Assembly: GCA_001788095.1 (NCBI GenBank)
Contig: MFZX01000026.1
Location: forward strand, 1-47,412
Direction: 5' to 3'
From: Candidatus Roizmanbacteria bacterium RIFCSPHIGHO2_12_FULL_37_23
GTDB lineage: Bacteria > Patescibacteriota > Microgenomatia > UBA1406 > HO2-37-13b
DNA length: 47,412 nucleotides
Shown: piece by piece, positions 7,778 to 14,536 of the stretch
Layout: the number at the start of each line of letters is the position of its first letter
Position numbering within the stretch: position 1 is the stretch's first letter
Translations under genes and position numbers: made by a program
The notes under the pieces: generated by a model
The model's input: the letters and a program-made list of their open reading frames with translations, nothing else
Told to the model about the DNA's origin: nothing
The model's database searches: none

Positions 7778-9019
7778 TTATTTTTTTTCTGGGTGATTAA
7801 GAAGCTTGTAAAGGAACACAATTGATATGAGTTGAAAAATCGCTGCGATAAGTAAATTAACTTTGAGTGATATCATCTGCGAGGTCAGTGACGCAATGTA
7901 GATAAAAAGTAAAGCACCCATAACCCTTCCCGCGTTCAAGAAAACTTCAAGGTCACAAATGCGCGCATAATTATGCCCCTTATTATCCGTATTGTCTTTC
8001 TCAATTGACTGATACATTATTGGAAGAAAGGCCAATTGTTCCATAGAATCAGCGATAGTGTCGAGGATCATAAAAATAAGTGCTCCCCAAAGAGCAAAAT
8101 TAATATTTAATATAACCGAGCCACTTGTCAGGATAATAAATCCGAGGATTGTGATTAGTAGTCTATGGTGAGTAGTTGATTTTCGTCCAATGGAATAAGT
8201 AATCAGCGCAGCCAATACTGCTGATAGTGAGAGAACAAATCCAAGAGCCCCTTCATCACCAATTAAAGATAACACGACAAGAGCTGGTGCATAAAAAAAT
8301 ACACCACTTTTCAGACCGGTAAAAAAACCCATAGCTCTTACTTTTTTCCATCTATCTGTAACGTTTTTCAATAAAAGTTGTATTGGATCGCGAGCAATTT
8401 TTACTGACCTGATATGATAACCCGCGAAGAAAAGAATGATCGTCGCAATAATAATCAGAATTTTATACGCTTGTTCGGGTGTGTAACTTTGTGAGTAAGA
8501 TCCGGCAACAATAAACCAGCCTATTAATGCTGGAATAATTATATTAATGAGCGTTGATATTGAAGAGGATACTCCTTCAAAATAATTTCGATTTTCATCA
8601 GGCATTGAATTGAGAGAAAAGTAGTGTCTGTTTGACCACCATAAACCAAAAAAGACTCCAAATAATAATCCAAAAAAGAAAACAAATGGGGTCGTAGTTT
8701 TTTGAAGAAAAATAAGCGGAATTATTGATATTCCCTGTGCGACAGAACTCATGAGAAACAACTTATTAGCAGTAAATTTTTTAAGTAGAATACCGTTTAT
8801 GTAAAAACCGAGAGGTAAACCGATAAAAGTTCCAATGCTGTAAAGTGCTATAGTTGAAAATCTTCCTGTTTGTCGATATAAAAAAGCATTAATGAAAATA
8901 GCTAGAAAAGGATAGGCAATTTTATAGAGCGAGTAGGAGACTATCAGTTTTTGCGCATGGACTGGGAGCGATTTAAAATGTGAAAATTCAGTAGTGATTG
9001 CTTTCCGAAGAAGATTCAT
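7778..9019 (-). CDS. MFS-type transporter
   Basis: 413 aa with about 12 TM helices in two 6-TM halves. Confidence 0.8.
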   Translation of the reverse strand: MNLLRKAITTEFSHFKSLPVHAQKLIVSYSLYKIAYPFLAIFINAFLYRQTGRFSTIALYSIGTFIGLPLGFYINGILLKKFTANKLFLMSSVAQGISIIPLIFLQKTTTPFVFFFGLLFGVFFGLWWSNRHYFSLNSMPDENRNYFEGVSSSISTLINIIIPALIGWFIVAGSYSQSYTPEQAYKILIIIATIILFFAGYHIRSVKIARDPIQLLLKNVTDRWKKVRAMGFFTGLKSGVFFYAPALVVLSLIGDEGALGFVLSLSAVLAALITYSIGRKSTTHHRLLITILGFIILTSGSVILNINFALWGALIFMILDTIADSMEQLAFLPIMYQSIEKDNTDNKGHNYARICDLEVFLNAGRVMGALLFIYIASLTSQMISLKVNLLIAAIFQLISIVFLYKLLNHPEKK

Positions 9020-9060
9020 AATGAAAGTATCTCAACATCCCATCTCGATTGCAAATTCGG

Positions 9061-9131
9061 AGCGGGTGAGGGGAATCGAACCCCCGGCTTCTCGTTGGCA
9101 ACGAGACATTGTACCACTCAACTACACCCGC
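9061..9131 (-). tRNA. tRNA-Gly(GCC)
   Basis: GCGGGTG acceptor, TCTCG-TTGCCAA-CGAGA anticodon arm, GGGGGTTCGATTCCCCT. Confidence 0.96.
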
Positions 9132-9153
9132 GGTGCGATTTATTATATCAAAG

Positions 9154-9226
9154 TGCCGAGGCTCAGAGTCGAACTGAGATCTCACGTTTTTCAGACGCGC
9201 GCCGTGACCACCTTGGCTACCTCGGC
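9154..9226 (-). tRNA. tRNA-Phe(GAA)
   Basis: GCCGAGG acceptor, CGCGT-CTGAAAA-ACGTG, CTCAGTTCGACTCTGAG. Confidence 0.95.
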
Positions 9227-9228
9227 TG

Positions 9229-9302
9229 TGGGCCTGCTTGGATTCGAACCAAGGACTTCCATCTTATAAGGATGGCACTCTAAACCGCTGAGTTACAGGC
9301 CC
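9229..9302 (-). tRNA. tRNA-Ile(TAT)
   Basis: GGGCCTG acceptor, CCATC-CTTATAA-GATGG anticodon arm, CTTGGTTCGAATCCAAG, A73. Confidence 0.93.
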
Positions 9303-9354
9303 TCAGAAATATTCTTATTATACAACGAATCCTGCGCACCTGACAGGAATAGAA

Positions 9355-9379
9355 TCCTTCATTTCGTTCAGGACTGTAG
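9355..9379 (-). repeat. 25-nt T-arm insertion element CTACAGTCCTGAACGAAATGAAGGA
   Basis: 23/25 identical to 14490-14514; both copies sit between GCGGG and TTC. Confidence 0.85.
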
Positions 9380-9415
9380 CCCGCATCTTAGGCTTCGGCA
9401 TGTCCGTCAAAGCAG

Positions 9416-9487
9416 TGCCTTTAGCGGGATTCGAACCCACATCTCAAGCTCCGGAAGCTTGCATTCTATCCGTTAAACTATAAAGGC
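9416..9487 (-). tRNA. tRNA-Arg(CCG), intact and nested inside the disrupted copy
   Basis: GCCTTTA/TAAAGGC-A acceptor, CAAGC-TTCCGGA-GCTTG, GTGGGTTCGAATCCCGC. Confidence 0.93.
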
Positions 9488-9543
9488 TGTAAAAAGCGTC
9501 GGTGGAAAGCCGCTTACATTCTATCCATTGAACTACAGGTGCT

Positions 9544-10320
9544 CTATATGAAGGCAGAAAAAACTATTATAGCTAATATGATGCGATAAAGTCCAAATAG
9601 TGTAAGACTGTTACTCTGCAGATATTTAATAAACCATTTGATAAACATAAGAGCAGAGAAAAATGACACGAGAAATCCGGTTCCGACGATCATTATGTTT
9701 TGGTTTGTGAGTAGAGAATAGTCGGTTTTAACCAAGTCTAATATTGATGCACCAATGATGGTTGGCACTGCCAGTAGATAGGAATAGACTGCCCCTTCTG
9801 ATCGCTTATATTTCATAAACATCATACCCACAATAACCGCACCAGCCCTTGATACGCCTGGGATTATAGCAAATGACTGGATAAGTCCGGCAAAAAATGC
9901 GTCCTGATATGATAAATCCGTTAGAGATTTCTTTAACGTAAGCTTTTTCTTTTGAATTAACATTTCAATAACTATAAATAAAATACCTACAATAAAAAGC
10001 GAACTTGCGATGATCGTCATGGACTGAAAAAACACAGTTTTAATTATTTCCCGCATAAAAAAACCAATAATTGCTGTGGGAACAAAAGAAATGAGAACTT
10101 TAGGAATAAGATCTTGGTGTTTACGAATATAGTCAAAATAGAGAAATATTACTGCCAAGATCGCTCCTGATTGAATAAAAACTTCAAAAAAACTAATAAA
10201 TTCGGATTGGGGTAAACGGAGGAATGAGCTTGTGATTATAAGGTGAGCTGTTGATGATATAGGAAGAAATTCAGTAGCACCTTCTACAAGTCCAAGAATC
10301 ATTACCTCAATGATGGTCAT
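9544..10320 (-). CDS. uppP: Undecaprenyl-diphosphate phosphatase (BacA)
   Basis: GLVEGATEFLPISSTAH and PGVSRAG motifs. Confidence 0.96.
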   Translation of the reverse strand: MTIIEVMILGLVEGATEFLPISSTAHLIITSSFLRLPQSEFISFFEVFIQSGAILAVIFLYFDYIRKHQDLIPKVLISFVPTAIIGFFMREIIKTVFFQSMTIIASSLFIVGILFIVIEMLIQKKKLTLKKSLTDLSYQDAFFAGLIQSFAIIPGVSRAGAVIVGMMFMKYKRSEGAVYSYLLAVPTIIGASILDLVKTDYSLLTNQNIMIVGTGFLVSFFSALMFIKWFIKYLQSNSLTLFGLYRIILAIIVFSAFI

Positions 10321-14406: not shown

Positions 14407-14478
14407 GGCTCGGTAGCCAAGTGGTAAGGCAAGGGTCTGCAAAACCCTTACACGCGGGTTCGATTCCCGCCCGGGCCT
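14407..14478 (+). tRNA. tRNA-Cys(GCA)
   Basis: GGCTCGG/CCGGGCC-T acceptor, AGGGT-CTGCAAA-ACCCT, GCGGGTTCGATTCCCGC. Confidence 0.96.
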
Positions 14479-14484
14479 CAAGAA

Positions 14485-14536
14485 GCGGGCTATAGTCCTG
14501 AACGAAGTGAAGGATTCGATTCCCGCCCGGGCCTCA
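14485..14536 (+). repeat. Duplicated 3' end of tRNA-Cys interrupted by a 25-nt element (14490-14514)
   Basis: GCGGG[CTATAGTCCTGAACGAAGTGAAGGA]TTCGATTCCCGCCCGGGCCTCA repeats 14454-14480 exactly once the insert is removed. Confidence 0.88.

Follow-up and report, generated by a model that had tools for sequence, protein, structure and literature searches.

The stretch of DNA analysed here, a contig of 47,412 nucleotides (nt) from Candidatus Roizmanbacteria bacterium RIFCSPHIGHO2_12_FULL_37_23 (MFZX01000026.1; hereafter the window), carries a complete tRNA-Arg(CCG) gene lodged within the anticodon loop of a second tRNA-Arg gene, which is itself interrupted by a 25-nt insert in its T-loop (9542-9335, minus strand). 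We consider it likely that this nest combines a resident pseudogene with an inserted replacement tRNA, and that it represents one outcome of a recurrent disruption and replacement of tRNA genes in the order to which this bacterium belongs. The window is contig C26 of a genome (G000, with related genomes numbered in the same way) that amounts to 1.09 Mb in 45 contigs, is 95% complete and, because a tmRNA is present, is bacterial.

Anatomy of the nested tRNA-Arg(CCG) genes

An earlier note on this DNA, made from the letters alone, had described a complete tRNA-Arg(CCG) inside the anticodon loop of a broken tRNA-Arg, and our analysis returned the same boundaries at every coordinate. Read in the direction of the genes, the parts are as follows.

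9566-9595, minus strand: promoter-like site, matching 10 of 12 consensus positions (a consensus match only) and ending 23 nt upstream of the outer 5' end
9512-9542, minus strand: outer (resident) tRNA-Arg(CCG), positions 1-31 (31 nt), comprising the acceptor 5' strand, the D arm and the anticodon-stem 5' strand
9488-9511, minus strand: spacer 1 (24 nt), left flank of the inserted tRNA, no relative found
9416-9487, minus strand: inner tRNA-Arg(CCG), intact, 72 nt, detected by ARAGORN and Rfam
9399-9415, minus strand: spacer 2 (17 nt), right flank of the inserted tRNA
9380-9398, minus strand: outer tRNA, positions 34-53 (19 nt), comprising the anticodon CCG, the anticodon-stem 3' strand, the variable loop and the T-stem 5' strand
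9355-9379, minus strand: 25-nt mini-hairpin between T-stem position 53 and T-loop position 54, with a CTAYAG prefix, a stem of 5-6 base pairs and a conserved purine-rich loop
9335-9354, minus strand: outer tRNA 3' end (20 nt), comprising the T-loop, the T-stem 3' strand, the acceptor 3' strand and the discriminator

The insert in the anticodon loop measures 113 nt (24-nt flank, 72-nt tRNA and 17-nt flank) and stands in place of positions 32-33 of the outer gene. In the native sequence ARAGORN and Rfam detect the inner gene alone. When both inserts are removed by script, with two spacer bases kept as positions 32-33, ARAGORN calls the outer join as tRNA-Arg(ccg); removal of one insert only, or use of the ARAGORN intron mode on the native sequence, yields no outer tRNA. 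The outer acceptor strands pair at 7 of 7 positions, as had been noticed earlier, and the joined halves are recognizable as a tRNA both by the ARAGORN call and by their match to a relative's gene, given below, which greatly exceeds what chance would produce.

Because independent contigs span the whole nest without a difference, the nest is not the product of one misassembly. The stretch was found in 20 public DNA runs, labelled groundwater and soil; no RNA run was among those listed. These labels, and the small genomes of all 401 class members sampled, suggest a group akin to the candidate phyla radiation. A Logan contig from a run of another study (X4) covers 9254-9792 with 0 differences and 0 gaps, and one from a run of another study again (X5) does the same over 9253-9950, so that the possibility of a misassembly across 9330-9545, raised in the earlier note, is answered by contigs that bridge the region. 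The contig of a third run covers 9260-9464. None of the contigs in four runs skips either insert, a result that carries little weight since contigs drop rare variants.

The two flanks of the inner gene have no significant match elsewhere in G000 or in any locus fetched. Their partial complementarity, which had earlier been likened to a palindromic element opened at its loop, is at chance level: the duplex is predicted at -7.4 kcal/mol against a shuffle mean of -7.15, 43% of 2000 shuffles are as good, and the joined spacers fold at only -5.9 kcal/mol. The palindromic reading depends on that complementarity and is not retained. Spacer 1 bears a likeness to CCGAC-type hairpins of relatives' broken tRNAs that requires indels and is a weak lead only, and no CCGAC-type hairpin occurs elsewhere in G000. 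A remnant of a GIY-YIG open reading frame (ORF) in spacer 1, in frame with the TAG at tRNA positions 8-10, was rejected by eye, as nothing there resembles the K-rich C-termini.

The resident gene and its probable replacement

In relatives of this family and order, the genes that come after uppP are tRNA-Arg(CCG), tRNA-Ile(TAT), tRNA-Phe and tRNA-Gly, with tRNA-Arg(CCG) present in 13 of the 20 uppP loci fetched. The 5' end of the outer gene in the window begins 1 nt past the uppP stop codon, and downstream of its 3' end, before tRNA-Ile, lies promoter-like sequence that is the same as in G008. The joined outer halves are identical to the 13 genes of relatives at 48-65 of 70 positions (65/70 for the tRNA-Arg(CCG) downstream of uppP in G002, the best match, and 63/70 for G005, the next), and the inner gene at 48-57 of 72 positions. 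This synteny, together with the closer match to relatives, identifies the outer gene as the orthologue, and thus the resident, and the inner gene as the newcomer. The comparison of the locus downstream of uppP that the earlier note had proposed establishes the outer gene as the syntenic orthologue.

The condition of the resident gene was gauged against the tRNA-Arg(CCG) genes of 12 relatives, in which 46 columns are conserved in at least 11 of 12. The outer gene deviates at five of these 46 columns (G29A, loss of T32, loss of T33, G37A and C64T), carries a T at a T-loop position that is otherwise always a purine, and has an A-C mismatch in its anticodon stem. No choice of splice site gives T33 back, because the bases beside the junctions are GG and TG. 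A covariance model of these 12 genes gives the outer 5' half, taken by itself, 19 bits (E 4.7e-5). Judged by its sequence, the outer gene is a young pseudogene.

The inner gene scores 66.5 bits with the Rfam tRNA model (gathering score 29) and 87.6 bits with the covariance model of the 12 relatives, is called tRNA-Arg(ccg) by ARAGORN, has standard pairs in all 21 of its 21 stem positions, and is the sole CCG isoacceptor among the 44 tRNAs of G000. It differs from the outer gene at 20 of 70 positions, many of them paired (compensated) changes in the acceptor and anticodon stems, and among the other tRNAs of the genome none is closer to it than 51 identical positions. The claim that this is not a simple tandem duplication stands, given that the inner copy is intact and differs from the outer by compensated stem changes. 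Nor is the inner gene a recent duplicate of the outer one, because the dead outer copy is still almost identical to the gene of a relative. The inner gene appears instead to have come from a different allele lineage.

Comparison of the 113-nt insert with 223 genomes of the order by BLAST matched the tRNA core only (best 86% over 57 nt) and never the acceptor stem or the spacers, and exact and IUPAC patterns for the inner 5' part retrieved no donor from viral, genome or metagenome contig collections. According to the earlier note, small elements had struck the tRNA, and an isoacceptor from another source had taken its place in situ. Orthology, the damage to the resident gene and the hairpin family described below support the disruption and the replacement in situ, and we keep the other source as a supposition, no donor having been found.

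Mini-hairpins, nuclease genes and broken tRNA genes in related genomes

The mini-hairpin in the outer T-loop is one of 2 copies in G000, the second lying about 5 kb away on the other strand. Of 223 genomes in the order, 24 contain its CTAYAG form, and its core is present in at least 118 metagenome contigs. Three of the five stem pairs are changed on both sides, and 98.2% of 55 cells are paired, a level reached by 0 of 500 shuffles; this count used 11 equal-length copies of the 16 aligned, excluding both G000 copies, G058 Val1 and the two G044/G046 'y' copies. Insert-free counterparts of the site exist, in that the T-arm is uninterrupted in the tRNA-Arg(CCG) of all 12 relatives and in the first tRNA-Cys 3' end. 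More than one type of hairpin repeat may share a locus: 54 of the 120 metagenome and viral core matches listed lie within 30 nt of an arm of another hairpin repeat, and one copy of the hairpin holds a nested insert. By inspection a hammerhead core does not fit the hairpin loop, and other ribozymes gave no Rfam match. Hairpin repeats of the GTCATYCTGA...GAAGRATC type are likewise widespread, with 23 nt identical across many genera and up to 8 copies per genome, often nested or adjoining (L029-L058 and L091-L210, from order genomes and metagenome contigs), and we found no paper holding this core sequence in the full-text literature.

The second copy of the mini-hairpin in G000 follows an intact tRNA-Cys gene in the window.

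14407-14479, plus strand: intact tRNA-Cys(GCA), detected by ARAGORN and Rfam
14480-14535, plus strand: displaced second tRNA-Cys 3' end, made up of a 5-nt linker, a copy of the T-stem 5' strand, the hairpin (14490-14514) and 21 nt

The 21 nt after the hairpin are identical at 21 of 21 positions to the T-loop through 3' end of the tRNA-Cys itself, and this redundant 3' end is broken at 53/54, exactly as in the outer tRNA-Arg. The Cys block and the outer-Arg region share 90% identity, and their homology continues past the T-stem for 9-10 nt on its upstream side, where tRNA-Arg has its native variable loop. This homology hints that one of the Arg and Cys blocks was copied from the other, or both from a common source. 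The linker before the Cys hairpin (14475-14489 against 9393-9380) is like the tRNA-Arg variable loop and unlike that of tRNA-Cys. In G043 (Pro) and G071 (Gly), too, the hairpin has an AGAAG-like linker in front of it. An inversion between the opposite hairpin copies (9355-9379 and 14490-14514), followed through on paper, simplifies neither locus.

The order was searched for the CTAYAG-prefixed form, and 29 loci were examined. Seven copies of the hairpin have a T-stem 5' strand directly on one side and a TTC T-loop directly on the other, and an intact tRNA of that isotype either immediately precedes the broken piece or is enclosed by it (G000 Arg, G000 Cys, G012 Lys, G048 Lys, G043 Pro, G071 Gly and G058 Val); only in the Arg case is the intact tRNA enclosed. 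Besides these, a second copy in G058 Val and a copy in G044 Val are each followed by a displaced T-stem 3' strand. Displaced pieces can be as short as 14 nt or amount to almost an entire tRNA; they have the sequence of the intact gene in Cys and in one Val and represent a different allele in Gly, Lys and Pro. At the uppP locus of G029, a member of another family, a displaced 5' fragment of tRNA-Arg(CCG) that carries two hairpins in its D-loop lies between uppP and an intact copy.

A related arrangement involves genes for small GIY-YIG proteins, for which several of our structural readings were made by eye from printed sequence. Small GIY-YIG ORFs occur in 21 of 25 genomes of the family, with up to 13 matches in one. 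At seven of the 27 family loci examined (L275 in G012, L279 in G003, L267 in G023, L280 in G016, L276 in G019, L283 in G015 and L271 in G024), such an ORF of 80-110 amino acids (82 for the one beside tRNA-Lys in G012) stops 0-13 nt short of an intact tRNA in the same orientation, and its stop codon is often the T8-A9-G10 of that tRNA. Six of the seven ORFs are preceded by a broken 5' copy of that tRNA, which extends up to about the T-stem 5' strand; these broken copies carry perfect hairpins in the D-loop or in place of the anticodon loop. The locus in G003 (L279, contig C1), read by eye, is the closest counterpart of the nest: the partner of the broken 5' part, which precedes the ORF, is a 3' end situated beyond the intact tRNA and two tandem partial copies. 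As far as its sequence tells, this locus is a resident tRNA split by an insert with a complete replacement, like the Arg nest, but broken in the T-loop and furnished with a nuclease gene. The partial copies in G003 follow the intact tRNA-Lys(TTT) as two tandem units of about 105 nt, each with a 5'-truncated tRNA-Lys, a hairpin for the anticodon loop and a 29-nt linker.

G000 has 5 PF01541 matches, none of them on C26. On C44 (10938-11261) a GIY-YIG ORF passes into a copy of a T-stem, a related hairpin and a 3' end like that of tRNA-Glu, with a 21-mer shared with the tRNA-Glu flank; contigs C44 and C45 both end there. GIY-YIG genes are flanked by related hairpins in two loci of G000, in one of them by wider-family hairpins. 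Taken together, the loci of this order point to a recurrent process, in which tRNA genes appear to be broken in their loops, with a working copy beside or inside the broken one and mini-hairpins in the broken loops.

Alternative readings, proposed history and known systems

Two alternatives concern whether the nest is real and whether its outer gene still works. An artefact of assembly or binning, which would have joined reads of two strains or of two tRNA-Arg genes, has a negligible probability in our view. G000 is certainly fragmented, and tRNA genes are conserved repeats that break assemblies, as where the ends of contigs C9 and C34 overlap inside tRNA-His and its upstream flank (by virtue of this overlap the two contigs are probably adjacent in the genome); set against this are the difference-free contigs of two other studies and the partial coverage in a third run, and no chimera would seat an entire tRNA so exactly within a second one whose two outer halves stay in register. 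Scarcely more credible is a functional intron-like gene, from which 113 nt and 25 nt would be removed and the outer halves ligated to give a second tRNA-Arg(CCG), the inner gene being borne by an intron. tRNA introns usually lie in the anticodon loop, where one break is found here, and the outer halves do form a cloverleaf that ARAGORN accepts after removal of both inserts, with the acceptor fully paired and only 1 of 21 pairs broken. However, G000, at 95% completeness, has 0 matches to the tRNA-splicing endonuclease family (PF01974; control positive in 4 archaea) and 0 to RtcB (PF01139; control positive in 10 of 14 genomes), and none of the 10 Rfam matches at E<=10 over 9000-9800 is to an intron or ribozyme family. 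The lack of a splicing endonuclease, of RtcB and of a group I match makes an intron unlikely, and the tRNA-within-intron arrangement that the earlier note had offered as its alternative is disfavoured on these grounds. Moreover, 113 nt, 72 of them tRNA, are too few for a group I intron or ribozyme, and the minimum-energy fold of the exon-spacer junction region contains no 3-4-3 bulge-helix-bulge, though no search aimed at that motif was made. Removal of the inserts cannot restore T33, G37 and other conserved positions are changed, the ARAGORN intron mode fails to call the outer gene, and the 25-nt insert is a repeat also found in plainly redundant tRNA fragments.

The remaining alternatives accept the nest and differ over its origin or its purpose. 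If the inner tRNA were a local duplicate of the resident gene that diverged in place, nothing foreign would have been inserted; this is improbable, in spite of the fruitless search for a donor in every collection, the D arm, anticodon loop, variable loop and T arm of the inner gene, all typical of the clade (as reflected in its 87.6 bits), and the partial tandem duplications of tRNA genes that occur in the group. The difficulty lies in the rates that it demands, as a functional copy should not diverge so far (20 of 70 positions from the outer gene) while the dead copy hardly changes (65 of 70 positions still identical to the G002 orthologue). Improbable too, though by a slightly smaller degree, is that the broken pieces are kept for a function of their own, with the hairpin-bearing mimic of a T-arm and acceptor serving the tRNA operon as a processing signal, a protein-binding site or a recombination site. 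Such a role would fit the conserved sequence of the hairpin and its stem, which compensated changes maintain in different genera and isotypes; it would also fit the constant orientation and T-arm position of the hairpin and the tandem G-A/A-G beside the stem in the loop, which may recall kink-turn-like motifs. A recently spreading mobile repeat, however, would equally give conservation and many copies; the host fragments vary in extent, from a 14-nt 3' end through a 3' half to a nearly whole tRNA; the pattern is rare; and there is no match to an Rfam family.

Several observations also count against a resident pseudogene with an inserted replacement as one outcome of a recurrent process. The stem damage in the outer gene is slight (1 mismatch in 21 pairs), so the case for its loss of function is built chiefly on the two inserts and on changes in the loops, and it is from sequence that we predict the inner tRNA to be processed and the outer one to be silent. 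The absence of a donor leaves divergence to carry the argument for a foreign origin. There is no target-site duplication and no integrase, transposase or GIY-YIG gene at or near the nest, and hence nothing at the site to decide how the insert entered. The cases in relatives were found by way of the hairpin, so that they give no count of displaced tRNA copies that lack it. Finally, none of the 120 metagenome and viral matches listed places the hairpin core in a T-loop outside the order, and of 401 genomes sampled from the class, 1 has the T-loop form, namely G000 itself (G012 lay outside the sample).

With these points in view, we still favor a resident tRNA gene that was disrupted and replaced, within which we infer the order of events, the expression and processing of the genes, the foreign origin of the inner gene and any role of GIY-YIG proteins. 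A 113-nt segment with a tRNA-Arg(CCG) of a different allele would have entered the anticodon loop of the resident gene with the loss of two bases. There need have been no lethal intermediate, because the insert itself supplies the tRNA function: the inner tRNA would be transcribed from the resident promoter (9566-9595) and presumably released by RNase P and a 3' processing nuclease. The resident halves, now dispensable, may then have gained the T-loop hairpin at 53/54 and the damaging substitutions, and the hairpin block, or its source, may also have been copied into the duplicated 3' end of tRNA-Cys. Candidate routes of entry are the repair of a break in the tRNA gene, a reduced derivative of a nuclease-bearing cassette, and template switching.

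A bolder extension, which we put forward only tentatively and think more doubtful than not, is that the order harbors a hitherto undescribed kind of 'tRNA swap' mobile DNA with tRNA loops as its targets, and that a working tRNA is in every case left behind or brought along. Its autonomous form would be a GIY-YIG gene in a broken tRNA followed by an intact copy, and its reduced forms would be mini-hairpins with a duplicated or replaced tRNA segment. Were this true, the 113-nt insert would be a minimal tRNA-carrying member that became indispensable by destroying the resident gene.

tRNA genes are classic landing sites of mobile elements, the known cases being large islands with integrases or self-splicing introns. 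Williams is said to have reported in 2002 that integrases of tRNA-targeting elements cross over in the anticodon loop and the T-loop. Our loci resemble att-type tRNA fragments in that a displaced fragment adjoins an intact copy of the same tRNA and the breaks fall in these two loops. An intact tRNA followed in direct orientation by a displaced fragment of itself is what the Cys locus contains, whereas at Arg the intact gene lies inside the displaced one. The Cys locus has the 21-nt identical repeat, which could correspond to a crossover core, and no segment of the outer gene is repeated in the Arg nest. The loci further differ from att-type fragments in having no integrase or island, only 5-113 nt between the pieces and a hairpin repeat at the junction, and the Arg nest differs in that the intact gene is inside the broken one with no part of the latter duplicated. 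Partial, non-canonical tRNA genes are described as products of element integration in passages of van der Gulik et al. 2023 (PMC9897764). According to passages of another study (PMC2330249), SegB, a GIY-YIG homing endonuclease in the tRNA cluster of phage T4, promotes inheritance of its own tRNA region over that of a relative. The small GIY-YIG ORFs between a broken and an intact tRNA copy in relatives recall this system; unlike it, the nest has no GIY-YIG gene on its contig, the proteins of relatives consist of 80-110 amino acids with the catalytic domain only, and the setting is a bacterial chromosome rather than a phage.

Among interrupted tRNA genes, the protein-spliced introns and split tRNAs of archaea and eukaryotes share the break in the anticodon loop, and in some archaeal multi-intron tRNAs a second interruption lies in the T-loop, as here. 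The nest, by contrast, is found in a bacterium with neither endonuclease nor RtcB, shows no bulge-helix-bulge apparent in its fold, and would be joined without U33. Group I introns of bacterial tRNAs likewise break a bacterial tRNA gene in its anticodon loop, but the present insert is far below the size of their catalytic core, has no Rfam match at E<=10 and is a tRNA. Small palindromic repeats include REP/RAYT, the Rickettsia palindromic elements, and the double-hairpin and GC-cluster elements of mitochondria. As generally known, these too are short, structured, multi-copy hairpins that occur within genes and within one another; the CTAYAG subfamily differs in occupying one T-arm position, in being seen only in copies redundant to an adjacent intact tRNA, and in having no linked transposase. 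None of these known systems combines a complete tRNA nested in its displaced orthologue, hairpin-marked loops and the lack of a recombinase, and the full-text literature searched (main texts, without supplements) contained no description of hairpin-marked broken tRNA genes. The nest itself can be regarded as damage to a tRNA gene by mobile DNA with functional replacement, and the wider pattern may be more than this.

The inserts at the present loci are very small and interrupt tRNA genes that are essential and single-copy, in genomes that are streamlined; an intact copy lies beside or inside each broken gene. Such loci allow one to ask how a complete set of tRNAs survives attack, whether tRNA genes are a substrate of small GIY-YIG nucleases, and by what means lineages exchange tRNA alleles. 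They also carry a warning for annotation, as the broken halves and hairpin-bearing fragments are easily miscalled as introns, split tRNAs or extra genes.

Nine of the ten ORFs around the nest match transporter, glycosyltransferase, UppP and NUDIX proteins in Pfam, and one has no Pfam match. The neighboring tRNA-Ile(TAT) (9228-9302, minus strand) is found in the same place, beside tRNA-Arg(CCG), in 18 of the 20 uppP loci of relatives. Since just two tRNAs of G000 have a CAT anticodon and the TilS N-terminal family finds no match in it, AUA is probably read in this bacterium by the UAU anticodon of this tRNA rather than by a lysidine-bearing one.

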